From Candidatus Gastranaerophilales bacterium (GTDB lineage Bacteria > Cyanobacteriota > Vampirovibrionia > Gastranaerophilales > Gastranaerophilaceae), in assembly GCA_947625495.1 (NCBI GenBank), contig CANQOQ010000002.1:122306-186305 (forward strand): a stretch of 64,000 bases of DNA, in the 5' to 3' direction. Position 1 is the stretch's first letter. Every line of letters begins with the position of its first letter. Of this stretch, positions 3,386 to 63,978 are shown in pieces. The translations under genes and the position numbers were made by a program. A model generated the notes under the pieces. The model searched no databases. It saw only the letters and a program-made list of their open reading frames with translations, and was not told the DNA's origin.

Positions 3386-4312
3386 ATGAAAGTAAGCGTA
3401 AAAGTTCCCGCAACAACAGCAAATTTAGGTCCCGGTTTTGATTGTTTGGGACTTGCACTTCCTTTATATAATGAGGTTGCCGTTGAAGAAACGGTTATGC
3501 CCGGAAGCGGTATTGAAATTAATATTCTTGATGAAAATGATATGTATGATGTTTTATCAATACCAAAAGATGACAATAATCTGGCTTATAAGGCAATAGA
3601 ACTTTTATATAATTTTATAGGTCAGAGTGTAAGTGACATAAAAATAACAATAAAAACAAATATACCCGTAGCAAGAGGATTAGGTTCAAGTGCTTCGGTT
3701 ATAGTAGGCGGGCTTGTTGCAGCTAATGAGTTGCTGGGCAGACCCGCTGATGATGCGGTTATTTTATCAATAGCTTCAGAGGTTGAAGGTCATCCTGATA
3801 ATGTTGCTCCTGCTATTTATGGCGGTTTTTGTATTTCTTCAATGGAAAGTGACGGAAGCGTTTCTTATTCCAAGATAGATTGGCCTAAGGATTGGAAATT
3901 AACGGTTATAATTCCTGATTATGAACTTGATACTTCTATATCAAGGTCAGTTATACCTGAAAGTATAAGCGTAAAAGATGCAGCTTTTAATGTAAGAAAG
4001 TGTGCCATGCTGGTTGATGCAGTTTATAAACAGGATTCTGAGCAATTAAAAAAATGTTTAAAAGATAAGCTTCATCAGCCATATAGAGAAAAACTCATTA
4101 AAGGTTTTAAAGAGTTAAATGAACTGCTTGAAAACAAAGAAGATATTTTAGGCTGTGTAATATCAGGTGCAGGTCCTTCTATTTTGGTTATTTCCAAAAA
4201 TGACGGGTTTGAAAAGGTTCAAAATGAAGTAAAAAATATTTTTGATGATTTTAATGTTGAATGTGATATAAGGACATTTGATGTTGAAAATCAAGGTACG
4301 ATAGTAATATAA
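3386..4312 (+). CDS. thrB: homoserine kinase
   Basis: KVPATTANLGPGFDCLGLAL and GLGSSAS GHMP-kinase motifs; 308 aa. Confidence 0.92.
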   Translation: MKVSVKVPATTANLGPGFDCLGLALPLYNEVAVEETVMPGSGIEINILDENDMYDVLSIPKDDNNLAYKAIELLYNFIGQSVSDIKITIKTNIPVARGLGSSASVIVGGLVAANELLGRPADDAVILSIASEVEGHPDNVAPAIYGGFCISSMESDGSVSYSKIDWPKDWKLTVIIPDYELDTSISRSVIPESISVKDAAFNVRKCAMLVDAVYKQDSEQLKKCLKDKLHQPYREKLIKGFKELNELLENKEDILGCVISGAGPSILVISKNDGFEKVQNEVKNIFDDFNVECDIRTFDVENQGTIVI

Positions 4313-7266: not shown

Positions 7267-7857
7267 ATGAGAAATTCATCAATTTACAGGTCTAATCTTT
7301 CGGGTGAAAAGATTGCTTTTTTATCTGAGGTTAAAAATCAAAAAGATATGGAGCCTCAAGAAGATAATAATACACCTAAAGCCTATAAAAGATCAGGGAA
7401 ACAAAAAGAACTTGATATGCTGTGGCAGAATTTTAAAATTAATCCCAAAGAAGAAAAATCTCCGGGTGTTTATTTATTAACAGGATTTATTGCAGGTGCT
7501 TTATGCATGTTCCTAATGAATGCTATTTTAAGTTTGGGTTCTAATATTTCAAACTCAACAGCAGAATCATCTTTAGGCCAGCCAAAATTTGAAAAGAAAA
7601 TTTCAAGAAAAAATAAATTGCCTCAAATAGCTTCTTCCGCAGAAGTATTTCCTTCTATATCCGCTAATCAGGAGGAACCTAGTATTCCTGCTAATGAAAC
7701 TTATGTAGTTAAATCAGGTGATTCTATGAGCAGTATTGTTTACCACTTCTACGGTAAATATGACCCTGAAAAAATTGAAAAAATTAAGCAGGTTAACAAT
7801 TTAACCAGTGCAAACAGGCTTTCTATCGGTCAGGAACTTATTATTCCAATGAACTGA
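7267..7857 (+). CDS. LysM domain membrane protein
   Basis: One TM helix (GVYLLTGFIAGALCMFLMNAIL). C-terminal LysM: YVVKSGDSMSSIVYHFYG...NRLSIGQELIIP. Confidence 0.75.
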   Translation: MRNSSIYRSNLSGEKIAFLSEVKNQKDMEPQEDNNTPKAYKRSGKQKELDMLWQNFKINPKEEKSPGVYLLTGFIAGALCMFLMNAILSLGSNISNSTAESSLGQPKFEKKISRKNKLPQIASSAEVFPSISANQEEPSIPANETYVVKSGDSMSSIVYHFYGKYDPEKIEKIKQVNNLTSANRLSIGQELIIPMN

Positions 7858-8377
7858 TATATGTAATTTGTTTATTACCGTATACTTTGGCTTTGATTAA
7901 TTCAAAGCCATTGTTGTTTATGGATTTATCAACAGGGTGTTCCAGTATTACAATTCCGCCTTGATTTAATATGTTATTTTTTTTGATTATATCAAGCGAC
8001 TGTTCATAAAGGTCAGAGTCATAAGGCGGGTCTATAAATATTACATCTGCCTTAGTGCTTATTTTTAATATGTTTTTTAGTGAATCTCCAAAATATAAAT
8101 TTGGAGTAAGCTTTAAATTTTTATAATTTTCCTTAATTGCAAGTGCTGTTTTTCTGTCTTTTTCAAAACATATAACATTAAATCCCCTCGATAGAGCCTC
8201 CAAACCCATTATTCCGCTTCCCGAGAACATATCTATAAAGGTTTTGCCGTTAAAATCCATCATTGAAGAAAGCGTGTTAAAAATTCCCTGACGGGTTTTT
8301 GATAATGTGGGCTTAATATTATCAAAATCAGGTGTTTGAATCTTTCTTGAATTATATATTCCGCCAGTTATCTGCAT
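7841..8377 (-). CDS. rsmD: 16S rRNA (guanine966-N2)-methyltransferase
   Basis: ITGGIYNSRKIQTP...TRQGIFN, DMFSGSGIMGLEALSRG and FIDPPY motifs. Confidence 0.85.
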   Translation of the reverse strand: MQITGGIYNSRKIQTPDFDNIKPTLSKTRQGIFNTLSSMMDFNGKTFIDMFSGSGIMGLEALSRGFNVICFEKDRKTALAIKENYKNLKLTPNLYFGDSLKNILKISTKADVIFIDPPYDSDLYEQSLDIIKKNNILNQGGIVILEHPVDKSINNNGFELIKAKVYGNKQITYISSLE

Positions 8378-8907: not shown

Positions 8908-9641
8908 TATATTAACTCCCACGCAGGTTTTTCAGCAGCTTTAAAAAGCTCTACATCTTCTTTTTTCAATATCTTTTCAAATATGTCGACAACAAATTTT
9001 TCGCTTTGAAAGTGACCTAAATCAATAATGGTAATTGAGTCTGTATTGATAGCCTGATGATGTTTTAAATCACCCGTAATAAATACATCAATACCGATTT
9101 TTTCCAAATCTTGTATATAATCGGCGCCCGACCCCGAGCAAAATGCAATTGAACTGTAGGTTTTCCGTTTACTGTTAACAACTCTTATTTTGGGTATATT
9201 GAAAATTTCTTTTAATTTACTGATTAATTCCTTAAAGTCTTTGTCTTCATTAAATTTTTTATATTTAATAAAATCAAAAGCGGTATCTAAGTCTTTAAAA
9301 CCGCATTTTTCGGCAAGATGTTCGCATACTCCGCCTTTTGCTATATCTAAATTTGTGTGTGCCGAGTATATTTGTATGTTATTTTTTATTGCTTCTATAA
9401 TGAACGGTTTATTTATAATCTTTATCGGGCTGAAAAAAACGGGATGATGTGAAATAATTAAATCACAGTTGGATTTTATTGCCTCTTTCACCGTATTTAT
9501 TGTTACGTCAAGAGTAAGTAAAATTCTGTTTGTTTCTTTATTTCCGAGGTTAATCTGCCAGCCTGAGTTATCCCAACTCTGCATTGTATCCGTCGGTGCA
9601 AATTCTTCTATCTTTTTTATTATTCTGTTTATTTTAGCCAT
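8907..9641 (-). CDS. Nif3-like dinuclear metal centre protein (YbgI family)
   Basis: NSGWQI, ISHHPVFF and SAHTNLD motifs; 244 aa. Confidence 0.85.
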   Translation of the reverse strand: MAKINRIIKKIEEFAPTDTMQSWDNSGWQINLGNKETNRILLTLDVTINTVKEAIKSNCDLIISHHPVFFSPIKIINKPFIIEAIKNNIQIYSAHTNLDIAKGGVCEHLAEKCGFKDLDTAFDFIKYKKFNEDKDFKELISKLKEIFNIPKIRVVNSKRKTYSSIAFCSGSGADYIQDLEKIGIDVFITGDLKHHQAINTDSITIIDLGHFQSEKFVVDIFEKILKKEDVELFKAAEKPAWELI

Positions 9642-11440: not shown

Positions 11441-12670
11441 TTATTCATATCTTAAAGCATCAATGGGGTTAAGAAGTGAAGCTTTGTAAGCGGGATAATA
11501 GCCGAAAGCAATACCTACAAGCCCTGAAAAACCGAGTGAAAGAATTATTGAAAACACTGAAATTGATACGCTCATTCCGTCAGAGAAAAATTCAACTGCT
11601 TTTGCCCCTATAATACCTGTTAATACACCGATTAAACCGCCTATTATAGAAAGCATAAAAGATTCTATTAAAAATTGCCAGCGAATATCTGACGCCCTCG
11701 CTCCTATTGCCATTCTTATACCTATTTCCTTCGTTCTTTCCGTAACCGATACGAGCATTATATTCATAATGCCGATACCGCCTACAAGCAGCGAAACGGA
11801 AGCTATTGAAGCTAAAAGTATGGCAAAAGTTTGGACGGTTGATTTCATTTTTTCCTGAAATTCGGCGGAATTTCTTATTTCAAAATCGTTAACCTGATTT
11901 TTACCTATATTGTGTCTGGTTTTTAAAAGTTCTTCTATATCTGTTTGAACATCATTTAGAGTGTCGCCGTCAACACCTTTTACGACAATCATACCTACGG
12001 TTCCGGGGAAACTTACGCCGAACAGTTTTTTCTGCGCCGTTGTTATGGGGATGAATATTAAATCATCCTGATCAAAAGGGCCTGTTGAACCTTTGGTTTT
12101 AAGTGTGCCTAAAACTTTAAAAGGCACGTTGCCGACTCTTATAACCTTGTTGACGGGAGATACATCGCCAAAAAGCTCTGTAGCTACAGTCGAACCTATA
12201 ACGGCAACTTTGGCGCTGTTTTTTATATCCTCAAAGGAAAAACATCTGCCTTCATCTATTTCATAATTTTTAATATATAAATATGGCGGAGTCGTCCCGT
12301 ATACAGTGGATTGCCAGTTTTGATTGCCGTACATCAATTGTTTGCTTTGATTTGAAGCAGGAGCGACAGCATCGATATTCGCTATACTTTTTTGTATGGC
12401 TATTGTGTCTTTTAATGTTAATGTGGGTCTTGAACCTATTCCCATACTTACTCCGCCTGTTCTTGCGGATGAAGAACGTATTGTCAAAAGGTTTGACCCC
12501 ATTGCTTCCATATTCTCCTGAACTTTTTTACTTGCGCCAGTTCCTATTGCAAGCATTATAATTACCGCACTTACCCCGATAATAATACCCAGACTTGTCA
12601 GGGCAGAGCGCATTTTATTCACCTTGAGTGAAATCATTGCCATTTTAATTGTCGATTTGAAATCTAACAT
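11441..12670 (-). CDS. ABC transporter permease, MacB/FtsX type
   Basis: 409 aa; N-terminal TM helix, MacB-like periplasmic domain, C-terminal FtsX block (ERTKEIGIRMAIGA). Confidence 0.85.
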   Translation of the reverse strand: MLDFKSTIKMAMISLKVNKMRSALTSLGIIIGVSAVIIMLAIGTGASKKVQENMEAMGSNLLTIRSSSARTGGVSMGIGSRPTLTLKDTIAIQKSIANIDAVAPASNQSKQLMYGNQNWQSTVYGTTPPYLYIKNYEIDEGRCFSFEDIKNSAKVAVIGSTVATELFGDVSPVNKVIRVGNVPFKVLGTLKTKGSTGPFDQDDLIFIPITTAQKKLFGVSFPGTVGMIVVKGVDGDTLNDVQTDIEELLKTRHNIGKNQVNDFEIRNSAEFQEKMKSTVQTFAILLASIASVSLLVGGIGIMNIMLVSVTERTKEIGIRMAIGARASDIRWQFLIESFMLSIIGGLIGVLTGIIGAKAVEFFSDGMSVSISVFSIILSLGFSGLVGIAFGYYPAYKASLLNPIDALRYE

Positions 12671-13387
12671 CTATGTCTGCCTTGTCCTTGTCTTCATCCA
12701 CTCTTCTTTTGGCTGGTCTGAAACTATCCTGCCGTCTTTAAAACGGATTACCCGTTTGCAGTATTCCGCAATATCAGGTTCATGTGTTACGAGTACAATA
12801 GTCTTACCCGTCTTATTATTAAGATTTACAAAAAATTCCATAACCTCGATACTGGTCTTGGTATCAAGATTACCCGTAGGCTCATCCGCCAGAATTAAAG
12901 GTGCATCGTTAACTATGGCACGGGCTATGGCAACTCTCTGCTGCTGACCGCCTGACATCTGGTTTGGCATGTGGTCTTCTCTGTTTTCCAAACCTACTAT
13001 TTTTAAAGCTTCCCTCGCCCTTTTATGGCGTTCTTCTTCAGGTACTCCTTTATATATCATCGGCAACTCTACATTATCAAGTGCGGATGTCCTTGAAATT
13101 AAATTAAATCCCTGAAAAACAAATCCGAGTTTTAAATTTCTTATATCAGACAACTCATCAGGCTTTAAAGATAATACGTCAACACCGTCAAGGTAATAAC
13201 TGCCCGAATTTGGCTTATCAAGTGTGCCTAACATATTCATGCAGGTTGATTTACCTGAACCGGATGTTCCCATAATCGCAACAAACTCGCCTTTTTCTAT
13301 ACTTAATGAAACATCATTAAGTGCATTAAAGCTTTCTTCACCTGTTTTGTAGGTTTTTATTGCATGTTTTACTTCAATAAAACTCAT
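12671..13387 (-). CDS. ABC transporter ATP-binding protein (MacB/LolD-like)
   Basis: Walker A GTSGSGKST, signature LSGGQQQR, Walker B ILADEPTGNLD. Confidence 0.92.
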   Translation of the reverse strand: MSFIEVKHAIKTYKTGEESFNALNDVSLSIEKGEFVAIMGTSGSGKSTCMNMLGTLDKPNSGSYYLDGVDVLSLKPDELSDIRNLKLGFVFQGFNLISRTSALDNVELPMIYKGVPEEERHKRAREALKIVGLENREDHMPNQMSGGQQQRVAIARAIVNDAPLILADEPTGNLDTKTSIEVMEFFVNLNNKTGKTIVLVTHEPDIAEYCKRVIRFKDGRIVSDQPKEEWMKTRTRQT

Positions 13388-13394
13388 TTCTTGC

Positions 13395-14534
13395 CTATAA
13401 TCTCGGTACTCTCATATTTTGTTTTTGCTTGCCTGATAAAACTTTGCCTGTGTATACCTTGTCGCCTGCTTTTATTTCATCCGATATTATCTGCGTATAT
13501 GATTCGTTGCTTACTCCTGTTTCGATATCAATACGGACAGGCTTGCCTTTTTTATCTATCCAAATGCCTTTTTTCTCATATTTTTGTTTATTGCCTTCAA
13601 CCGTGAATTTAAGAGCCTGATTCGGAACGGTTAAGACATTTTCTTTTTTATCGGTAATAATTGAAACATTAGCGGTCATGCCCGGTAAAAGCTTGCCCTC
13701 ATCATTTTCAACTTCAATAATAACGGTGTAAGTAACAACATTAGATTCAGTAATCGGTGATAATCTTACCTGAGTGACTTTACCCGTAAAAATACTGTCG
13801 GGGTAGCCGTCAAGAGTGTATTCAACATCCTGACCGACCTTAACTTTACCTATATCAGCTTCCGAAACACTTGTTTCAATCCGCATTTTATTGAGGTCTT
13901 CCGCAACGGTAAATAATGTAGGTGTTTGGAAGCTTGCTGCAACAGTCTGCCCTACTTCTACTTCTTTTGAAATAACAATCCCTTTAACAGGAGAGATGAT
14001 TTTTGTATATCTCATATTGGCGCTTGCCGTATCATAATTAGCTTGCGCTTGCATAATGGAAGCTTTAGATGAAGCTACTTGTGCTAAATCCGATTTATAT
14101 GCTGATTCAGCTGAATCAAGGTCATTTTTTGACACAAGATTTCTTTTATAAAGATTCTTATACCTGTTGTATGTTTTTGTATCATATTCAAGTATGGCTT
14201 GATTTTTTGCCAGAGTTGCTTTTGCATTGTTAATATTTGCAAGACTTTGTTGAAGCTGCGCTTCAAACAAAGATGTGTCAATCTGCGCCAGTAATTGCCC
14301 CTTTTCAACTTCTGAGTTATAGTCAACGTAAATTTCATTTATTAACCCCGAAACCTGTGTACCTATATCAACCGTATTTACGGGTTCAATTGTTCCCGTG
14401 GCTTCAACTATCTGAGTTATTGTTCTGGGCTTTATTTCCTGAGTTATATACTTAACTTTTCCTGTTTTTTTCATAAAAGCAAAAGGAAGTATGATTAATA
14501 TTATTATAATTATTGCGATTATTATTTTTTTCAT
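13395..14534 (-). CDS. efflux periplasmic adaptor (HlyD/MacA family membrane fusion protein)
   Basis: N-terminal anchor, coiled-coil hairpin, beta-barrel motifs (GMTANVSI). Sits in an operon with the ABC and TolC genes. Confidence 0.85.
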   Translation of the reverse strand: MKKIIIAIIIIILIILPFAFMKKTGKVKYITQEIKPRTITQIVEATGTIEPVNTVDIGTQVSGLINEIYVDYNSEVEKGQLLAQIDTSLFEAQLQQSLANINNAKATLAKNQAILEYDTKTYNRYKNLYKRNLVSKNDLDSAESAYKSDLAQVASSKASIMQAQANYDTASANMRYTKIISPVKGIVISKEVEVGQTVAASFQTPTLFTVAEDLNKMRIETSVSEADIGKVKVGQDVEYTLDGYPDSIFTGKVTQVRLSPITESNVVTYTVIIEVENDEGKLLPGMTANVSIITDKKENVLTVPNQALKFTVEGNKQKYEKKGIWIDKKGKPVRIDIETGVSNESYTQIISDEIKAGDKVYTGKVLSGKQKQNMRVPRL

Positions 14535-15949
14535 CTTTCCCCCATAGCCGTTTGAAGGTCAACGAGTGCTACATTGTACCTGAAAATATTTTGAACATAA
14601 TCTCTTTGAGCATTGTTGTAATTTTCTTTAGCGTCCTGAAGTTCTATAAAGTTGCCTAAACCTACTTCATATCTTGCGTCAGCAAGTTCATAGTTTTCAA
14701 GAGTCTGCTTAACTTTTGTGCGCATTAACGGAATATTCTTTTCAAGCTGAATCATGTTAATATAAGCATTTTGAACCTGAAAATATATGTTTTGTTTAAC
14801 TAAATCAACATTTCTTTTTGCAATTTCAAGCTGAGCCTTGCTTTCTTTAATCTTCAATTTAGTGTCCATTATATTAAGATTACTTGTGGTTAAGAATGCG
14901 CCTAAGCTTATTCCGTTAGTGGAATAATAAGAGTTATTCTGCCAGTTGTAACCGACCGAACCGGTTAAGTCGGGCAGGTATGATTTTTTTGTATAGCTTA
15001 ATGCTTCTTTAACGGCATCTTGTGTTGCCATCATGGATAGTAAATCAGGTCTGTTTTTATACGCTTTTTCTACAGATTCTTTAAGCGTATAGGGATATTT
15101 TGTAAACTTATAATTTTGCAAAATATCATTTTTTTCAACCTGCATAGTTAACACAGCGTCTTTTGGTTCTATTGTTCCGTCTTCTTTTGTTGTTGTATTT
15201 GCAATATTTATAAGGTTAATTTCCGCATAGTTTTTATCAAAATTAAAGGTTTCCGTATTTTCAATTTGATAATCGGGCGCATCTACAATATACATAGAGC
15301 TGTTTAAAGCTACAATTGCATTCTGATAAGTATTTTCGGCATTGATTAAACTTATTTTTGCATCTGATAAATATACTTCCTGATTGACCAAATCTATTTT
15401 AGAAACAAGTCCTTCATCAAAAAATGCTTTTGTTCTGTTATACTGCCTTTCATTAACTAAAACATTGGCTTTTTGGATATCAACATTTGCTTTAGCGGCA
15501 AGTACGGCATAATATGCGGATTTAACCGAGTTTGCCGTATTTAAAATCGAGTTTTCCAGGTCAAATTGTGCTGCAATTTTATAGAATTTCTGCATTTTTA
15601 CCTGTGAAAATACTTTGCCGAAACTGTATATCAGCTGGTTTAAAGATACTTGAGCGGAAACATTTTTATTGCTGTTTGAATAGTATTTTGAATCGGCATT
15701 ATTAAAGTTATAGCCTGCACTTGCCCCGATTGAAGGAAAATATCTGGCTTTGCTCTGACCTACCCTTGAATCGTACATTTCTATATACTGCTCATTAATT
15801 TGTATTTCAGGGCTGTTTTTTATGGCAAGTTCAACGCAGTCATTTATTGAAAGCGTATCTCCCGCTTTTATTTCCTCTATTGCGTAAGAAACTGTACCCG
15901 AGCAGGTTAAAATTAATATTAAACCGATTATTTTTATTTTATTAAACAT
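14531..15949 (-). CDS. TolC-family outer membrane efflux protein
   Basis: 472 aa; signal peptide; two OEP-type repeats (QYNRTKAFFDEGLVSKIDL.. and ..ADARYEVGLGNFIELQDA). Confidence 0.8.
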   Translation of the reverse strand: MFNKIKIIGLILILTCSGTVSYAIEEIKAGDTLSINDCVELAIKNSPEIQINEQYIEMYDSRVGQSKARYFPSIGASAGYNFNNADSKYYSNSNKNVSAQVSLNQLIYSFGKVFSQVKMQKFYKIAAQFDLENSILNTANSVKSAYYAVLAAKANVDIQKANVLVNERQYNRTKAFFDEGLVSKIDLVNQEVYLSDAKISLINAENTYQNAIVALNSSMYIVDAPDYQIENTETFNFDKNYAEINLINIANTTTKEDGTIEPKDAVLTMQVEKNDILQNYKFTKYPYTLKESVEKAYKNRPDLLSMMATQDAVKEALSYTKKSYLPDLTGSVGYNWQNNSYYSTNGISLGAFLTTSNLNIMDTKLKIKESKAQLEIAKRNVDLVKQNIYFQVQNAYINMIQLEKNIPLMRTKVKQTLENYELADARYEVGLGNFIELQDAKENYNNAQRDYVQNIFRYNVALVDLQTAMGER

Positions 15950-16735: not shown

Positions 16736-17248
16736 AACTTGAGCTCTGGTGCAGTGGCACCTTAAAAGTTTGGTTTAACTTATTTTGAACCGGCTCTGCC
16801 GGTGCCCTGCGAAATTCCGCTGTCTTGGATTTTGCTTCATTTCTGCCCTGTCATTCGCCGTGCTTCGCACCTGCTCATTTCGGGCATTCATTACTTCGAG
16901 CTTCGCTCTACGCAAAATCCGCTGTCTTGAAATTCCTTTTCGCTCAAGCTTGTCACTCCTACGGTTTTGCCTGTCGTCGTTTAAGCTTTCGCATAACGGA
17001 TTTCATCCGTACGGAATTTCGCTTCTTGGAATTGCTGTTCGCACAACCCCTGCAACCTCGCTTTAAAAACCTTTGGTTTTTCCGCTCGGTCGGGTTGTTG
17101 CTCCCTCGGGCTCGCTCGCTTTGCTCGGCTTTGCCCTGCGCAATTCCGCTGTCTTGAAATTCCTTTTCGCTCAAGCTTGTCACTCCTAAGGCTTTGCCTG
17201 TCGTCGTTTCAGCTTTCGCATAACGGATTTCATCCGTACGGAATTTCG
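16736..17248 (-). ncRNA. candidate structured non-coding RNA or 3' UTR element downstream of dnaK (unknown family)
   Basis: G+C jumps to about 50% (32/60 counted for 16801-16860). The plus strand is about two-thirds pyrimidine. Many short GNRA/GAA-loop hairpins, internal repeats, no credible ORF. Bounded by the dnaK stop codon and a terminator. Confidence 0.3.
16911..17023. repeat. direct repeat copy A (113 nt)
   Basis: Matches 17139-17250 with about five differences. Contains the acggat-ttc-atccgt hairpin and terminal inverted 11-mers. Confidence 0.9.

Positions 17249-17250
<2 letters not shown>
17139..17250. repeat. direct repeat copy B (112 nt), abutting the dnaK stop codon
   Basis: Matches 16911-17023. 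A partial third copy of its 5' end (gccctgcg[ac]aattccgctgtcttg) lies at 16804-16829. Confidence 0.9.
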
Positions 17251-58445: not shown

Positions 58446-59270
58446 ATGAAAAAAACATATAAAATAATAGGTTTTATAATACTGATACTCGGGGCAATAT
58501 CAATGCTTCTTCCGTTTATTTATATGATTTCATTATCATTTATGACTGATAAACAGATAATATCGGGAACGACTGAATTTATAGCTCATCCCTCTACTTT
58601 TGAGCATTATAAATATGTAGTAAATAACGTAGATATAATAAAATATTTTTATAACAGTATGTTCGTTGCAATTGCAACAACAATAGGTCAGGTATTAATT
58701 GCCTCAATGGCAGGGTACGCTTTTGCTCGATTTGAATTTAGATATAAAGAAATATTGTTCTTTCTAATCCTTGTATCAATGATGATACCGCCTCAGGTAA
58801 ATATAGTGCCTTTGTTTTTTATAATGAAACAGTTTCATTGGATAGATACATATTGGGCATTAATAGTTCCGGGGCTTTTTGGTGGGTTTGGAGTATTTAT
58901 GATGAGGCAGTGGTTTAAATCCATGCCTGATGATATGGAATCATCGGCGAAGATAGACGGGTGTAACACTTTTGAAGTGTTTTATAAAATAGCTCTGCCA
59001 TTGGCGCTTCCTGCAATTGTTACACTTGCTATATTTACATTTATTACAACATGGAACAGTTTTATGTGGCCGTTAATTGTGACAAATTCAGATTCTATGA
59101 GAACATTGCCTTTAGGATTAGCTAATTTTAAGGGAAGTTTTAGAGAAGTAACAGACTGGGGAGCATTAACCGCATATAGTGTAATTTGTTGTATTCCCGT
59201 TATAGGTGTGTTTTTACTTGGCAGAAAGTATTTTATAAACGATATTCTTTCGGGCGGAATAAAAGAGTAA
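58446..59270 (+). CDS. carbohydrate ABC transporter permease (MalG/UgpE-like), orphan
   Basis: Six TM helices and EAA loop (SAKIDGCNTFEVFYKIALPLALPA). No partner genes are nearby. Confidence 0.88.
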   Translation: MKKTYKIIGFIILILGAISMLLPFIYMISLSFMTDKQIISGTTEFIAHPSTFEHYKYVVNNVDIIKYFYNSMFVAIATTIGQVLIASMAGYAFARFEFRYKEILFFLILVSMMIPPQVNIVPLFFIMKQFHWIDTYWALIVPGLFGGFGVFMMRQWFKSMPDDMESSAKIDGCNTFEVFYKIALPLALPAIVTLAIFTFITTWNSFMWPLIVTNSDSMRTLPLGLANFKGSFREVTDWGALTAYSVICCIPVIGVFLLGRKYFINDILSGGIKE

Positions 59271-59293
59271 AATTTTAAATACTGATTAACAAA

Positions 59294-59768
59294 ATAATGT
59301 AATAATAATGAATATTTTTACAATTATTTACATACAGCTAAAATCATGTTCAAATCATGGTTTTAGCGGTTTTAAACTTTGCGAAAAGAGCTGATTTTAT
59401 TGATAAAGGATTGAAGAACTCAAAAAAAGATTTATACTGAAAATATAACAAACTTTAAAAAAAGACTATTGATAAATGGATGAGAATATACATTCCGTTG
59501 CTAACATAATAATGAAAAAAATATCAGGAAAGGAGAAAATAAATGGGAACTTGGGATGAGTCTGAACATCCACGTGATGACGAAGGGAAATTTACATATA
59601 AAAATGGAGGTAGTGATAGTGTTAAATCCGATGAAGAAAAAATGCAAAGACGAGCAGACCTTCTATATCCGTCAATGAAAGATAAAGAACCCAAAACAGA
59701 TTATTCAACTGTCGGACTTGAAAATTACAAAAAAGAAAAAGATTCTGTTACCGGCGGAGCTGCAAATA
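59294..59768 (+). repeat. 475-bp module copy 1 (249-bp leader plus the first 75 codons of the muramidase gene)
   Basis: Aligns colinearly with 61207-61680 with one indel and about a dozen substitutions by hand alignment. Confidence 0.9.
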
Positions 59769-60244
59769 CGGAAGATTGGCAAAAAGATAAGGATTTTAAT
59801 AAAATTTTAGAATATTTATATCCGCAAGAAGGAGGATATAGTAATAGAAAAGCAGATTTAGGCGGACCTACAAAACTTGGGGTTACTCAGACTACTTATG
59901 ACTGGTATAATAAACGTAATAAAATTCCGACTCAGAATGTGAAAAATATAACTAAAGGGGAAGCAACAAAAATATATTATGATTATTTTTGGAAAGAATC
60001 TGGTGCTAGTTCAATTAAAGATAAGGGTATGGCATTGATGTATTTTGATGCTGCCGTTAATCATGGTCCATATTATGCAAAAAAATATTATAAAGAATCA
60101 AATGGCAATTATAATAAGTTTGTTGAACTACGGAAACAACATTATGAGCGTATGAAAAATAATATACCTCAACAAAAAGAAAATTATAATGGTTGGATTA
60201 ACAGATTAAATAATATAGATAAATATATAGAAAAGAATTATTAA
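59543..60244 (+). CDS. GH108-like N-acetylmuramidase with conserved 75-aa N-terminal module (effector candidate 1)
   Basis: YPQEGGYSNRKADLGGPTKLGVTQ (GH108 EGGY catalytic motif). C-terminal YFD..VN.G / GW.NRL segment is PG_binding_3-like. RBS aggaaaggag. No signal peptide. Confidence 0.8.
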   Translation: MGTWDESEHPRDDEGKFTYKNGGSDSVKSDEEKMQRRADLLYPSMKDKEPKTDYSTVGLENYKKEKDSVTGGAANTEDWQKDKDFNKILEYLYPQEGGYSNRKADLGGPTKLGVTQTTYDWYNKRNKIPTQNVKNITKGEATKIYYDYFWKESGASSIKDKGMALMYFDAAVNHGPYYAKKYYKESNGNYNKFVELRKQHYERMKNNIPQQKENYNGWINRLNNIDKYIEKNY

Positions 60245-60251
60245 ATATAAA

Positions 60252-60671
60252 TTATTTGTTTATTTCACTTAAATATTTTCGGATAGTAATTAGTTTTTCT
60301 AAATATTGTTTTGAATTTTGGCATTTTATACTTGAACTTACTAAATATGGTTCTGCATAGTTCTGATTTTCAAATAAATTTTTTAATAATAAATTATTAT
60401 TTTTAATATATGTTTCCCAACTTAAATTAGACTCTGATAATAATTTATATTTATCCTTAGTAAGTATTTTTTTTAAAAGTTTTAATTCTTTATTGATTTC
60501 TTTATTGTATAAATTAATTGCTTGATAATTACATTCAGCCATATAAAAATCTGACTGATTGTTTGTATTTAGACAATTAAGTCTGGTTCTTTCTATATCA
60601 TCTGTTATATTAGCAAAAGAACAATTATTTGTTAATATCAAAATTATAAATACAATAAAAAACTTTTTCAT
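60252..60671 (-). CDS. secreted DUF1311/LprI-like protein (candidate muramidase immunity 1)
   Basis: Signal peptide MKKFFIVFIILILTNNCSFA. C..T......MAEC......Y.KEIN.....L......LL.ES...W..Y......C pattern of PF07007. ATG at 60671 preferred. Confidence 0.65.
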   Translation of the reverse strand: MKKFFIVFIILILTNNCSFANITDDIERTRLNCLNTNNQSDFYMAECNYQAINLYNKEINKELKLLKKILTKDKYKLLSESNLSWETYIKNNNLLLKNLFENQNYAEPYLVSSSIKCQNSKQYLEKLITIRKYLSEINK

Positions 60672-60769
60672 AAAAATAATTATAATAATTAGTATGTATA
60701 AAGACAATAGTAAATAAGTTAGGTTTAACTTCATCTAGAAAATATTAAACATTCAACAAGAAAACGTAA

Positions 60770-61138
60770 TTAAAATTCAAAAACAGGTTTTCTAAATTTA
60801 CGTTTTTCGTACCATCTAGCAAAGCGAAGTTTATTTTTGTAATCGTAAATATACTGTACTTTTTTATCTTTTAAACAAGAATACACTCCGCCTTTATTTT
60901 TAAAAAGAGCATAACTCCAATAATAGTGTTTAATAATTTTGAAGCAATTATTTTCATAAGCAAATTTTTTAACATAGTCAGGACTATCAGAAGCATCTAT
61001 TCTATCTAAAACATAATATTTATAGGCTTCATCTCCACTCATTTCTTCAAGCTCGGCAAGGGCTTTATTTGAAGACGAAGGAAAACAATTCAGTATAGAA
61101 ACCAAAATTACAGATAAAATGATAAAAAACTTTTTCAT
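60770..61138 (-). CDS. secreted/lipoprotein-like hypothetical protein
   Basis: Signal peptide MKKFFIILSVILVSILNC. Shares an upstream promoter module with the 62230-62769 gene. Confidence 0.55.
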   Translation of the reverse strand: MKKFFIILSVILVSILNCFPSSSNKALAELEEMSGDEAYKYYVLDRIDASDSPDYVKKFAYENNCFKIIKHYYWSYALFKNKGGVYSCLKDKKVQYIYDYKNKLRFARWYEKRKFRKPVFEF

Positions 61139-61210
61139 AGTAATAATTATAATAGTTCAAGTATAAAAAAACAATAGACAACAGCTTGTAGTTTTAATAC
61201 AACATAATAA
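61139..61210. repeat. conserved upstream (promoter) module of minus-strand island genes, copy 1
   Basis: aaaaaaacaatagaca[ag]cagcttgtagttttaatacaacataataa is repeated at 62796-62841 with one mismatch. The proximal part is more diverged. Confidence 0.8.
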
Positions 61211-61680
61211 TGTAATAATAATGAATATTTTTACAATCATTTACATACAGCTGAAATCATGTTCAAATCATGGTTTTAGCGGTTTTAAACTTTGCGAAAA
61301 GAGCTGATTTTATTGATAAAGGATTGAAGAACTCAAAAAAAGATTTATACTGAAAATATAATAAACTTTATAAAAAGACTATTGATAAAGGGATGTGAAT
61401 ATACATTGCGTTACTAACATAATAATGAAAAAATATCAGGAAAGGAGAAAATAAATGGGAACATGGGATGAGTCTGAGCATCCACGTGATGAAAATGGAA
61501 AATTTACATACAAAAACGGAGGTAGTGATAGTGTTAAATCCGAAGAAGAAAAAATGCAAAGACGAGCAGACCTTCTATATCCGTCAATGAAAGATAAAGA
61601 ACCAAAAACAGATTATTCAACTGTCGGACTTGAAAATTACAAAAAAGAAAAAGATTTTGTTACCGGCGGAGCTGCAAATA
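61207..61680 (+). repeat. 475-bp module copy 2
   Basis: See 59294-59768. Confidence 0.9.
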
Positions 61681-62201
61681 TTCAAATGGATAATGAAGAA
61701 TATATAAAAAATTTAAAAAATTTAGCTCAAACTGATTCGGATTTAAGATTTTTAAACAGTTTAGATTATATTTTAAAAGAAGAAGGAGGATATAATAATT
61801 ATAAAGGAGATAAACCAACAAATTTAGGAGTAACTCAAGATATTTATAATATATATAGAAAAGAAAAAGGTTTACCTTCCCAAGATGTGAAAAAAATTAA
61901 TATAAAAGAAGCAACTCAAATTTATCATAAATATTTTTGGAAACCATCTAAAGCAGATAAACTTCAACATCCTTTAGATTTAGTTTATTTTGATATGTAT
62001 ATTAATAGTAATCCTAGGGAAGCGAAAAATGTATTAAATCGTTCTGATAACGATGTTTATAAATTTATAGAAAATCGTAGAAAATTTTATGATGATGTTA
62101 TTAAGTCAAAACCAATAAAGGAAAAATTTAGAAAAGGCTGGTATAATCGACTTGATAATTTAAAAAAATATATTGATGAGTACTATGCGAGTATAAAATA
62201 A
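61455..62201 (+). CDS. GH108-like N-acetylmuramidase with the same N-terminal module and a diverged catalytic domain (effector candidate 2)
   Basis: First 75 aa are 71/75 identical to the 59543 gene. Then LKEEGGYNNYKGDKPTNLGVTQ, FWKPS, VYFD and GWYNRLDNLKKYI. Confidence 0.8.
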   Translation: MGTWDESEHPRDENGKFTYKNGGSDSVKSEEEKMQRRADLLYPSMKDKEPKTDYSTVGLENYKKEKDFVTGGAANIQMDNEEYIKNLKNLAQTDSDLRFLNSLDYILKEEGGYNNYKGDKPTNLGVTQDIYNIYRKEKGLPSQDVKKINIKEATQIYHKYFWKPSKADKLQHPLDLVYFDMYINSNPREAKNVLNRSDNDVYKFIENRRKFYDDVIKSKPIKEKFRKGWYNRLDNLKKYIDEYYASIK

Positions 62202-62215
62202 TTAAAGAATAAATT

Positions 62216-62245
62216 ACCTGATAACTCTATTATGAATTATCAGGT
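62216..62245. terminator. 9-bp inverted repeat spanning the convergent gene ends
   Basis: acctgataa (62216-62224) / ttatcaggt (62237-62245), 12-nt loop. It overlaps the stop codon of the minus-strand gene. Confidence 0.4.
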
Positions 62246-62769
62246 ATTCTGTCCGTATGAATTTTATAAACCCATTTTAAAAATTCTGCACGGTTTTTAA
62301 TTAATTCTTCATAATCACTTGCTGCTATATCAAAATACATTGTGCCTCCGTGATTAAAAATAAATTCATTAATAATATCATTATCTTTTTTACTTTGTTG
62401 TAACCATAGATTTTGACTGTCTTTAATGAGTTTATATTGTTCTTTTGTTGTTGATTGCTCCAATAATTTTATATATTTGTCTATTTCTTTTTCCCATTCT
62501 TTTGTTGCGTAATATATGCAATTTCTTGAATCTGCTGCATTATCAGTTTTATATATACAGCTTTGTTCGTTTATATCAATAGGATTGTCGAAATTTGTGA
62601 GTTTGTTATTTAATTCATTAATCAGTTTAACTTCTGCCTTTAATTTTTTATTTTCTGCTATTAAATTTGTATATTTTTTATCATCAATTGATTTTTTAAC
62701 AAAAAAACCTAGAGCAAAAGATGATAATAATAACAATAATGAAATTAATACAATAATAAGCTTTTTCAT
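62230..62769 (-). CDS. secreted DUF1311/LprI-like protein (candidate muramidase immunity 2)
   Basis: Signal/anchor MKKLIIVLISLLLLLSSFALGFF. C....(11)..C.....KEWEKEIDKY...L........L..SQ..W......GGTM......RAEFL fits PF07007 well. Confidence 0.75.
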   Translation of the reverse strand: MKKLIIVLISLLLLLSSFALGFFVKKSIDDKKYTNLIAENKKLKAEVKLINELNNKLTNFDNPIDINEQSCIYKTDNAADSRNCIYYATKEWEKEIDKYIKLLEQSTTKEQYKLIKDSQNLWLQQSKKDNDIINEFIFNHGGTMYFDIAASDYEELIKNRAEFLKWVYKIHTDRIPDNS

Positions 62770-62841
62770 AAGATAATTATAGTAATTCAATTTTAAAAAA
62801 ACAATAGACAGCAGCTTGTAGTTTTAATACAACATAATAAT
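62770..62841. repeat. conserved upstream (promoter) module, copy 2
   Basis: See 61139-61210. Confidence 0.8.
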
Positions 62842-62936
62842 AAAAAAATGTCATAAAAATTAGTACAAGCAGGTCGGGAATTACAAGAGCAAGAACAAAT
62901 AGAACCGTATTTTATAGTGTATTATGTTATAATACA

Positions 62937-63233
62937 TTGTCAATTATTGTGCCATTGCCATACGTAATACAATTTTATTCATTTAACGAAGTTGATATAA
63001 AAGATAATATACTTGAGATGTTTTTGCAATTAAGCATACCTACAATTATTGCAGCAATAATAAAAATAATGATTGAATTTCAAAAAGATGAAAATAAAAT
63101 AAAAAAATTAAATATTGTCAGGAAAATACTCAATATAATATCAGCAATTTATTTATTACTTTATGAACTCTTTCTTATATTTGTAATTATTGTAGTAAAG
63201 AGTATGGGGAATGCAGGTCCTTGGCAGAATTAA
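62937..63233 (+). CDS. possible small two-TM membrane protein
   Basis: TTG start directly after TGtTATAAT (62925-62933), with an alternative ATG at 63018. Two hydrophobic helices. Weak coding evidence. Confidence 0.3.
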   Translation: MSIIVPLPYVIQFYSFNEVDIKDNILEMFLQLSIPTIIAAIIKIMIEFQKDENKIKKLNIVRKILNIISAIYLLLYELFLIFVIIVVKSMGNAGPWQN

Positions 63234-63334
63234 TAATTCAAGTATTAAAAAATTAAATATAAAGTTTTAAATGGATTAATTGATAGAATGGCAAAAGAGA
63301 AAAAGTTATTTCTTACACCTGACGGAGAATAAAA

Positions 63335-63850
63335 TCACTTTATATCTTTTTCATATTTGCATAAAGCACTATAATATATTTCTCCATTAACAAACCCTGA
63401 ATAATCGGGACAAACTCCATAATCATTTATTTTGTCAGTCAATAATTTACCGTTTCTATCGTATTGTTTTATATGTATAAGACATAAAACATTTACATTA
63501 CAGTACGCTTCATATTTTATTAATTCATAATTTACCGAAACACCATCAACATCATATAAGGGATTTTCGACTGAATTAAATATTTTAAACCAACCCAGTA
63601 TTGAATACTTATTTTTAGTTATGGATTTTTTATCCAAATAAATATCTTTTGTTAATTGTAACCATTTCTCATCATTAGAAAGTTTGTAATTTGTTTCTGC
63701 TAAATGATTTATTTTGTCTTGTAAATATTTTCTTTCTGCATTCCAATCACTAATTTTCTCATCATCAACCGACTTTTTTACAAAAAAACCTAAAGTAAAA
63801 GACGATAATAATAACAATAATGATATTAATACAATAATAAGTTTTTTCAT
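63335..63850 (-). CDS. secreted protein, possibly Adhesin_E-like beta domain
   Basis: The N-terminal 30 aa are nearly identical to those of the 62230-62769 gene. C-terminal GWFKI....Y.....Y.C.....(L)......Y...GK........C pattern recalls surface-adhesin protein E-like domains (from memory). Confidence 0.5.
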   Translation of the reverse strand: MKKLIIVLISLLLLLSSFTLGFFVKKSVDDEKISDWNAERKYLQDKINHLAETNYKLSNDEKWLQLTKDIYLDKKSITKNKYSILGWFKIFNSVENPLYDVDGVSVNYELIKYEAYCNVNVLCLIHIKQYDRNGKLLTDKINDYGVCPDYSGFVNGEIYYSALCKYEKDIK

Positions 63851-63978
63851 AATGTAATTATAATAATTAATAAATACAATGACAATAGTTCAGTATATAG
63901 TTTGATTTGGGTTAGCGTAATTTAACAACAATAAAAAAGTAAGTTATTTCTTACACCGGATGATTAATAAAAACAATT

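Follow-up and report, generated by a model that had tools for sequence, protein, structure and literature searches.

The window analysed here, a stretch of 64,000 nucleotides of contig CANQOQ010000002.1 from a Candidatus Gastranaerophilales bacterium, contains two adjacent muramidase genes, called toxin 1 and toxin 2 below, that both begin with the same 481-bp repeat. This repeat very probably represents the invariable front end shared by polymorphic toxins of the Gastranaerophilales, behind which toxin domains and immunity genes are exchanged as cassettes. The Melainabacteria (Gastranaerophilales), relatives of the cyanobacteria, live in the gut and are uncultured; a literature search returned no interbacterial competition system described for them.

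The two copies of the repeat (59288-59768 and 61201-61680) are colinear and 96% identical, differing by 20 substitutions and a single 1-nt indel inside an A-run at position 59515; in the local alignment and with the repeat finder, 59288-59514 pairs with 61201-61427 and 59516-59768 with 61428-61680. A 50-nt core of the repeat finds exactly two matches, as compared to none expected in shuffled sequence. Each copy comprises a leader of ~255 nt and the first 75 codons of an intact open reading frame (ORF). The initial annotation, made from the sequence alone, had described a near-identical module heading two muramidase genes, which is confirmed with left ends lying slightly further out than its 59294 and 61207; it was also right about the single indel, but its count of roughly a dozen substitutions was too low. 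The encoded N-termini share 71 of 75 residues, as it had stated. Synonymous changes dominate in this tag (7 of the 11 coding substitutions), which indicates purifying selection.

Identity drops directly after the VTGGAAN codons. Past 59768 and 61680 only gapped pieces of ~70% identity can be aligned, and the pairwise alignment of the two loci exhibits an abrupt step, from 95% identity in the N-terminal part to 40% in the C-terminal part, rather than uniform divergence. The place of this collapse had been correctly recognized; the accompanying view that only scattered motifs are shared downstream does not hold, both C-termini being full GH108 domains with ~40% identity.

The repeat is also found outside this assembly. 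An independent short-read contig from another assembly (L002; loci and contigs compared are given L numbers) is 99.9% identical to the window, reproduces module copy 1 and stops 108 nt into copy 2, with the variants proper to copy 2. This agreement establishes that the repeat is real and not an assembly artefact, and that it breaks short-read assemblies. Module copy 1 is 96% identical to the orthologous module of another strain, L003. The left edge of module copy 2 cuts into a decayed toxin-tail remnant, NNRQQLVVLIQHNN, which recurs from 62785 onward. A 77-nt direct repeat (61143-61219 and 62773-62849, 90% identity) brackets the toxin 2-immunity unit, and both of its copies hold that same remnant NNRQQLVVLIQHNN, from which it follows that module copy 2 starts within the remnant of an older cassette.

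Two comparisons with other genomes yield reciprocal breakpoints. From 53541 onward, across the flanking genes, leader and tag, strain L003 and the window share 97.5% identity, and the homology stops at base 59768: beyond this point, an unrelated GH24 lysozyme domain follows the same module at the same locus. Conversely, in L006, from another genome, the N-terminal coding part is only 52-68% identical to that of toxin 1; identity climbs to 88-98% at ~59752-59781 and drops again at ~60712, spanning the GH108 domain, the convergent immunity gene and its promoter. This span defines 59769-60712 as the exchangeable unit, and the immunity promoter block (60655-60710) as the right-hand boundary of the cassette common with L006. 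The N-terminal and C-terminal identities accordingly dissociate in either direction: 95% and 40% between the two window toxins, 92% and 29% between toxin 1 and L003, 65% and 94% between toxin 1 and L006, and 93-95% against 23-28% among L004, L005 and L006.

The initial annotation had proposed counting the copies of the module and the C-termini attached to it in relatives. When species-representative genomes were scanned with the N-terminal domain, 37 loci were found, almost all of them in metagenome-assembled genomes (MAGs) of Gastranaerophilales, with up to five loci per genome. The proteins share the start MxxW[DN]E[SA][ED]HPRD[DE][EN]GKFT[YF]KNGG, followed by one to three copies of R-x-D-I-L-Y-P-T-M-K-D-K and, after these linker motifs, by the junction [VL]TGGAA[NSDK]. 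Behind this junction, the one N-terminal domain is joined to at least six unrelated Pfam families, GH108, Phage_lysozyme (GH24), Peptidase_M23, Gln_amidase (papain-fold toxin 1), SAA-like and Lipase_3, and to one unassigned domain termed ‘DVYDFN’. A constant N-terminus with alternative, unrelated C-termini is thus a property of the whole family, and the earlier proposal of cassette exchange at a domain junction of a polymorphic toxin locus is well supported by the L003 and L006 breakpoints and by the diversity of C-terminal families, each with its own type of immunity gene.

The catalytic parts of both window toxins score well above the Pfam cutoff for GH108 (PF05838, 78 and 67 bits for a cutoff of 21), toxin 2 having in addition a weak PG_binding_3 match. 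The EGGY motif with the catalytic glutamate is kept in both (QEGGY and EEGGY), and E96 is nearly invariant in the alignment. Together with the predicted fold, these features assign the two proteins to GH108, and their sequences indicate that the C-termini are diverged homologues and not pseudogenes. Intact GH108 folds are predicted: in the AlphaFold model of toxin 1, residues 78-233 have a predicted local distance difference test (pLDDT) score above 90, and the model matches SagA, TtsA and NMB1012 (Foldseek 7dnp, 6v40 and 2ikb). The N-terminus of the same model remains mostly below 55-76, residues 1-20 and a helix at 30-41 reaching ~75.

Each toxin type is accompanied by its own type of neighbour. 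Clustering of the neighbouring ORFs shows that clusters 4, 1, 2, 3 and 8 follow GH108, Gln_amidase, DVYDFN, GH24 and M23 toxins, respectively: LprI/DUF1311-like exported proteins after GH108, exported proteins of 116-122 amino acids after Gln_amidase, a small membrane protein after DVYDFN, a membrane-anchored protein of ~170 residues after GH24, and another family after M23. Cluster 4 follows GH108 toxins in L006, L010 and L011 as well as in the window. Cluster 1 members are located directly after Gln_amidase toxins in L008, L009, L010, L018 and L019, and cluster 2 genes directly after DVYDFN-type toxins in L001, L012 and L021. Cluster 3, which adjoins a GH24 toxin in L007, also occurs within the toxin arrays of L018 and L019. 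Judged from this adjacency and co-variation, the neighbour proteins would neutralise their cognate toxins.

Both GH108 genes of the window are faced by such a neighbour, with an N-terminal hydrophobic signal or anchor sequence. The product of 62230-62769 matches LprI (PF07007) with 36.9 bits for a cutoff of 22, while that of 60252-60671 reaches 17.8 bits, below this cutoff, and is 28% identical to the former; its MKKFF start matches the gene call on L002. LprI/DUF1311 is described as a family of lysozyme inhibitors and of immunity proteins for T6SS, the type VI secretion system (PMC12135965). Four immunity-like genes of the window possess the consensus TTGTCx-N17-TATAAT at a distance of 7 nt from the ATG; they lack a Shine-Dalgarno sequence, and their N-termini read MKKFF or MKKLI. 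Besides the copy at 60655-60710, this promoter block occurs on the minus strand at 61122-61177, 62752-62807 and 63833-63888. Its conservation suggests that the immunity transcripts are leaderless and expressed independently of the toxins.

Displaced cassettes have left their traces around and downstream of the two toxins. An orphan cluster 1 gene (60770-61138) lies between the two units, and no Gln_amidase toxin that could be its partner is present in the window. Downstream of the second unit come a decayed DVYDFN-type tail (62785-62946, translated as ...LVQAGRELQEQEQIEPYFIVYYVII, with a stop codon), a cluster 2 gene (63018-63233) whose DNA is 79-82% identical to the L021 and L012 copies, and the 3' tail of a GH24-type toxin (63264-63334), of which a second copy is found at 63941-63972 (repeat family D8). 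Both GH24 tails precede a convergent exported protein, in the first case the cluster 3 gene, whose DNA is 79% identical to the L018 copy. Such orphans occur in other genomes too: L010 harbors, at 7507-8276, the 3' two-thirds of the window's own GH108 cassette, with 93.6% identity.

These elements can be assembled into a highly probable scheme. The front end consists of a regulatory region, with a sigma-70-like promoter TTGAAG-N16-TATACT and, ~95 bp upstream of the inferred start, an inverted repeat and TTTACA boxes, followed by a largely disordered N-terminus of ~75 amino acids that combines a 22-residue tag (MxxWxExxHPRDxxGKFTYKNGG), the linker motifs and the [VL]TGGAA junction. Peptidoglycan-degrading and other toxin domains would be swapped behind this junction, each together with its own convergent exported immunity gene. 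Homologous recombination would bring about the exchange, with a left homology arm provided by the front end or by the junction and a right boundary provided by the immunity promoter; the orphan immunity genes and truncated toxin tails found downstream would be what persists of displaced cassettes.

Several points weigh against this scheme. The immunity role is deduced from the position of the genes, their co-variation with the toxins, signal peptides and an LprI match of weak to moderate strength. The convergent arrangement of toxin and immunity genes is also uncommon among polymorphic toxin loci. Neither a secretion nor an injection system was seen in the window or beside the related loci, so that export is putative. 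The catalytic domains bear the label ‘endolysin’ in PHROGs. The 4% by which the window copies differ is close to the divergence of the two strains, so that an ongoing homogenisation within this genome is hypothetical. Finally, almost all data stem from metagenome-assembled genomes.

The mode of delivery may be approached through the tag. The 75-residue region is hydrophilic, 40% charged and devoid of a signal peptide; Pfam and PHROGs assign it to no family, apart from a faint match of residues 3-18 to phrog_30637, and detect no known trafficking domain over residues 1-75. A word-indexed protein search with the tag alone retrieved three relatives only, whereas an exhaustive profile search retrieved 358 proteins at E ≤ 1e-3. 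Among the best 150 of these 358, 65 are shorter than 500 residues, 55 of them with the motif in their first 20 residues, and 85 are long proteins of up to 3,673 residues in which the 22-residue core (consensus wDEsxHPRDedGkFtxkGGg) mostly occurs two to nine times at domain-sized spacing. Examples of the latter contain Phage_Mu_F, ART-PolyVal, Zeta_toxin or GNAT domains, which identifies the long motif proteins as phage or plasmid polyvalent proteins. Its location in viral contigs is directly behind portal or head-maturation-protease domains, or N-terminally in small ORFs of the head module; in Pseudomonas phage Orimi01, it lies ~520 residues into a 703-residue protein at the portal position. 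A tblastn search of cultured phages with the tag gave nothing at E ≤ 0.01, and weak matches with the consensus peptide. Term searches in the main texts of the papers on MuF toxins and on polyvalent proteins (PMC5576092; PMC5512222) did not turn up the motif.

The tag therefore appears, from these sequence relationships, to be a per-effector label common with head-internal phage cargo, and it may act as a delivery or processing signal for toxins that would leave the producing cell and attack its neighbours in their periplasm. It is possible, though rather unlikely, that it represents a packaging or processing signal derived from phage head-internal proteins, and that the toxins are delivered in or on a phage-derived particle instead of by classical secretion. 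The recurrence of the motif between the domains of giant MuF, ART-PolyVal or Zeta-toxin proteins and its place behind portal and head-protease domains are in favor of such a route, as are three toxin arrays that directly follow terS/terL-like pairs. Conversely, no capsid, portal or tail gene was seen near any Gastranaerophilales toxin locus, most loci occupy ordinary chromosomal contexts and have a promoter to themselves, and the motif might as well represent a generic linker or a site cut by a protease. The terS/terL-like pairs (L018:934-2539, L019:2049-3654 and L029:4344-5955) lie beside rlmH; the PHROG terminase large subunit match is 2.9e-44, and no other phage genes are visible there. The L029 toxin gene starts 45 nt after terL, in the portal position and without the usual leader.

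GC-richer elements of ~100-128 nt, starting with AGCGGA(T/A)TT and ending with (A/T)TCCAAGAC, were also encountered. In other genomes, the element splits the tag precisely where its His-Pro codons meet those for Arg-Asp, and it carries in-frame stops; its precise removal would restore EHPRDDEG. The window itself holds four units in tandem (16822-17250, minus strand), immediately after the stop codon of dnaK. Further copies are found at L016:2922-3048, L017/L033/L036:5874-6000, L030:1167-1293, L039:6031-6142, L171:102-212 and 3888-4015, L010:5414-5520 and 9101-9207, L015:5393-5509 and L101:1757-1880, and among the loci compared the element occurs only in those of Gastranaerophilales type. The copies are 92-99% identical to each other, as compared to 50-90% for the toxin coding sequence on either side, a difference that suggests recent insertion at a specific site. 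Their minimum free energy fold is a similar three-way junction in most copies folded (z of -3.6 to -4.7 for six of eight units), the closing stem varying between subfamilies by compensatory changes. Rfam has no match for the element, known small ribozymes included. A translational bypass was dismissed, the landing frame not fitting, as were a group I or II intron, from its ends and size, and an integron attC site, from the absence of core sites; a miniature inverted-repeat transposable element (MITE), a homing element and an excisable switch are the candidates.

One of these insertions lies in a third, decayed copy of the module in the same genome (L171:1-950 and L172, from the same sample as L002). 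Its leader has been lost between two ACATAATAAT(G) direct repeats, the element of ~100-128 nt is inserted in the HPRD codons, and the GH24-type C-terminus is frameshifted at its end. The genes typA, infA and those of ribosomal proteins come after it.

A more far-reaching proposal joins the tag and the element: the HPRD tag would be a portable ‘address label’ originating from phage head-internal cargo, loading free-standing peptidoglycan-degrading toxins into a phage-derived particle or another machine, and the 100-128-nt element would either home to a specific site or switch toxin expression in the manner of an intron. This combination is distinctly unlikely; if true, polymorphic toxins would have, with the address label, a delivery route not seen before, and this in a phylum for which no interbacterial weapon was found described.

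Upstream of the tag, the leader was examined in an alignment of 16 loci from different genomes. Its best-conserved block, cTTGAAAag-N-AAAAAGATTTATACTGAAAATATA, corresponds to a sigma-70-like -35/-10 pair, and the block AAAGATTTATACTGAAAATATA is almost invariant across the 16 leaders and present in the window only in the two modules. The probable promoter TTGAAG-N16-TATACT is followed by GAAAATATA and would place the transcription start at ~59445, with a 5' untranslated region (UTR) of ~98 nt whose conservation between genomes is much lower. When metagenome DNA was scanned with the promoter pattern GATTTATACTRAAAATA, one of the 80 loci among the matches listed (L101) was relevant, the others being chance matches.

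Further upstream lies an imperfect inverted repeat, GCTAAAATCATG-N7-CATGGTTTTAGC, ~95 bp before the inferred transcription start and unique to the two modules within the window. The stem GCT[A/G]AAATCATG-N7-CATGGTTTTAGC, already pointed out in the initial annotation, differs between 59336-59366 and 61249-61279 by a single A/G change that results in a G-T pair, as had been noted. Its position is conserved in the 16 leaders, in which 80% of the cells are paired as against 24-46% when the partner columns are slid, and a TTTACA box stands 16 nt before the loop in nearly all leaders read (18 in L007). The greater conservation of the distal leader, reported earlier from the two copies, persists as a trend (3 differences out of 155 positions, against 6 out of 100 plus the indel in the proximal part) that is not significant by itself (Fisher p = 0.16, or 0.05 with the indel counted); the conservation across genomes supports it independently.

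The distal leader could alternatively act as a cis-regulatory RNA, riboswitch-like or attenuator, or as a small RNA built around the 12-bp hairpin, as one of the suggestions of the initial annotation had it. The hairpin is indeed found in most leaders, with some compensatory changes (five pairs), and its plus-strand pairs include 16 G-T against 8 A-C; the sequences being non-independent, this asymmetry is too weak to choose between RNA and DNA. The folding and covariation analysis that had been proposed did not yield an RNA: covariation does not exceed that of shuffles (97/500; 16 leaders), RNAalifold returned no consensus structure for the 16 leaders, single-sequence folds of the leader and of the putative 5' UTR have ordinary energies (z of -0.6 and -0.8), and Rfam 15, run over 59200-62900, gave no match in the leader and one chance-level match elsewhere in that range. 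Moreover, the hairpin is located upstream of the best-conserved promoter and thus probably outside the toxin mRNA, and the invariant 16-nt spacing to the TTTACA box suits a protein-binding DNA site. An RNA is therefore quite improbable here, and the functional element expected in the distal leader is better understood at the DNA level, as a promoter that hardly varies together with an inverted repeat that keeps its position. The most economical reading of the aligned leaders would be a shared promoter with an upstream protein-binding site, co-regulating all toxin paralogues.

A 28-codon ORF in the leader, from 59308 onward, was set aside: it has two synonymous differences between the copies but is not conserved in the leaders of other genomes. 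Small XRE-type helix-turn-helix genes occur within a few kb of toxin loci (L007:9068-9674, L009:5974-6557, L012:7670-8253, L037:2292-2516 and L039:11856-12083), often paired with a second protein of 69-79 residues, and they are possible regulators of the conserved leader. A tblastn search of the window found neither an XRE-type regulator nor a terminase homologue.

The toxins might also be seen as housekeeping autolysins or remnants of prophage endolysins, and their neighbours as general lysozyme inhibitors or unrelated lipoproteins. The PHROGs endolysin family to which the catalytic parts are assigned, the frequency of GH108, GH24 and M23 domains among phage lysis genes, and the terS/terL-like genes beside three arrays are consistent with such an origin. 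It is nevertheless very unlikely, as the window contains no holin, spanin or other phage gene, and as a single front end is joined to many unrelated domains, including the dedicated polymorphic-toxin domain Gln_amidase. The strict pairing of each domain type with one neighbour type, the orphan neighbour genes and the truncated tails likewise argue against it, and endolysins need no cognate periplasmic inhibitors. A simple recent tandem duplication whose 3' parts diverged or decayed, with no cassette exchange, is suggested by the adjacency, common orientation and common GH108 assignment of the two genes and by the 77-nt repeat (D6) flanking the second unit, but is extremely improbable given the abrupt step from 95% to 40%, two intact C-termini with strong Pfam scores (which exclude the decay that the initial annotation had considered as a refutation), the unrelated fold behind the same breakpoint in the 97.5%-identical strain L003, and the ~90-98% identity of the window's C-terminus and immunity gene to a cassette that stands behind another front end in L006.

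The exchange of toxin and immunity cassettes behind a constant front end is thus retained, and the corresponding features of the window are collected in the table.

Table. Features of the toxin-immunity locus (positions refer to the window).
Feature	Position	Strand	Evidence or remarks
Constant 5' module, copy 1	59288-59768	+	255-nt regulatory leader and 75 codons of toxin 1; 96% identity to 61201-61680
Inverted repeat, candidate regulator-binding site	59336-59366	+	GCTAAAATCATG-N7-CATGGTTTTAGC; copy 2 at 61249-61279
Probable toxin promoter	59411-59438	+	TTGAAG-N16-TATACT, then GAAAATATA; promoter scan; copy 2 at 61324-61351
Toxin 1, 233 aa, N-terminal tag (residues 1-75) and GH108 muramidase	59543-60244	+	Pfam Glyco_hydro_108, 6.8e-22
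Exchangeable cassette 1, GH108 domain, convergent immunity gene and immunity promoter	59769-60712	.	88-98% identity to L006
Immunity candidate for toxin 1, exported, 139 aa, LprI/DUF1311-like (cluster 4)	60252-60671	-	weak Pfam LprI, 0.0044
Putative immunity-gene promoter and start	60655-60710	-	TTGTCT-N17-TATAAT-N7-ATG; repeat family D4; minus-strand promoter-scan hits
Orphan immunity gene, putative, cluster 1, 122 aa, signal peptide	60770-61138	-	cluster follows Gln_amidase toxins elsewhere
Constant 5' module, copy 2	61201-61680	+	leader and 75 codons of toxin 2
Toxin 2, 248 aa, same tag and diverged GH108 muramidase	61455-62201	+	Pfam Glyco_hydro_108, 2.8e-18
Immunity candidate for toxin 2, membrane-anchored LprI/DUF1311 (cluster 4)	62230-62769	-	Pfam LprI, 5e-9
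Decayed 3' tail of DVYDFN-type toxin, in-frame stop	62785-62946	+	tblastn to C-terminal ends of L028, L021, L015 and L001 toxins
Orphan immunity candidate, cluster 2, small membrane protein	63018-63233	+	cluster follows DVYDFN-type toxins
Orphan 3' tail of GH24-type toxin (...KKLFLTPDGE*)	63264-63334	+	tblastn to L007/L101 GH24 toxin ends
Immunity candidate, cluster 3, 171 aa, membrane-anchored, cognate to GH24 type	63335-63850	-	cluster 3 adjoins GH24 toxin in L007

The toxin locus comes after the murD-ftsW-murG-folC genes and an ABC permease gene, in a window otherwise devoted to housekeeping: Pfam analysis of 30 further ORFs of the window revealed housekeeping genes only. A 13-bp hairpin with flanking T-runs (62215-62246) separates the convergent toxin 2 and immunity genes and is likely a bidirectional terminator; no such hairpin lies in the mere 7 nt that separate toxin 1 from its immunity gene. 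Farther away, a MacB-type ABC exporter operon (11441-15949, minus strand) encodes a Pfam MacB permease and a TolC-like outer-membrane protein. It fits a diderm envelope and appears ordinary, without a link to the toxins.

The family is apparently a group of polymorphic toxins with an undescribed N-terminal tag. Its constant N-terminus, its co-varying immunity neighbours and its orphans agree with the general definition of such systems, while a defining feature of the CDI (contact-dependent inhibition), Rhs, T6SS-marker and MuF classes is lacking in each case. The Gastranaerophilales would accordingly possess multi-copy toxin arsenals, mainly directed at the cell wall, with a front end absent from Pfam and PHROGs. 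The repeats break short-read assemblies, at least 15 of the 37 loci being located less than 1 kb from the end of a contig, and counts of these arsenals in MAGs are therefore too low. The locus offers a clean natural case of cassette exchange, with reciprocal breakpoints, cassette limits at base resolution and a promoter that belongs to the constant part. The 22-residue tag also ties the toxins to an unexplained repeated motif of giant phage and plasmid polyvalent proteins, and learning what binds or cuts it would inform both fields.

Four groups of known systems share part of these features. The GH108 enzymes (coliphage N4 gp61, Salmonella TtsA, Brucella SagA and Neisseria NMB1012) have the same catalytic domain, EGGY motif and predicted fold, but they are phage lysins or helpers of secretion systems, without the N-terminal tag and without a cognate immunity gene. 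MuF toxins and polyvalent proteins (PMC5576092; PMC5512222) have in common with the family the 22-residue motif W-x-E-x-x-HPRD-x-x-G-K/R-F ... GG, which in their case separates one effector domain from the next and comes after MuF, portal or protease domains. The window proteins, in contrast, have one effector each and start with the motif at residue 1; they contain neither MuF nor any other virion domain, are encoded on the chromosome with their own promoter, and have immunity genes of periplasmic type, so that the short HPRD motif is all that they share with this group.

The T6SS WHIX effectors (PMC12135965) resemble the family in the fusion of a secretion-marker region to diverse peptidoglycan hydrolases (muramidase, lysozyme-like, M23 and amidase) and in immunity neighbours that carry signal peptides and include DUF1311/LprI. 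The marker differs, however, the tag being a short disordered N-terminal peptide and not a folded domain: Pfam detects no WHIX, MIX, FIX or PAAR domain, and no T6SS gene is found among the window ORFs scanned.

Architectural parallels also exist with polymorphic toxin systems that have a recombination junction, namely CdiA-CT/CdiI of contact-dependent inhibition and Rhs/YD proteins. As in these systems, a constant N-terminus ends at a short junction motif (VENN and PxxxxDPxGL, respectively; here [VL]TGGAA) past which similarity is lost, variable C-termini follow, and cognate immunity genes are adjacent, with orphan toxin tails and immunity genes downstream; Gln_amidase (PF15644) is reportedly among the toxin domains defined in the framework of Zhang et al. 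2012. The differences lie in size and surroundings. The proteins of the family are small (230-500 residues; 233 and 248 for the window toxins, with GH108 only in Pfam), instead of a large CdiA with FHA repeats and VENN, and they lack FHA, YD, PAAR and LXG domains. No CdiB or other transporter is encoded nearby, ORF scans of the window giving no two-partner secretion (TPS) transporter, and most of the immunity genes are convergent with their own promoter. Lastly, the family belongs to the Melainabacteria, and its constant part reaches beyond the coding sequence, ~250 bp into the upstream regulatory DNA.

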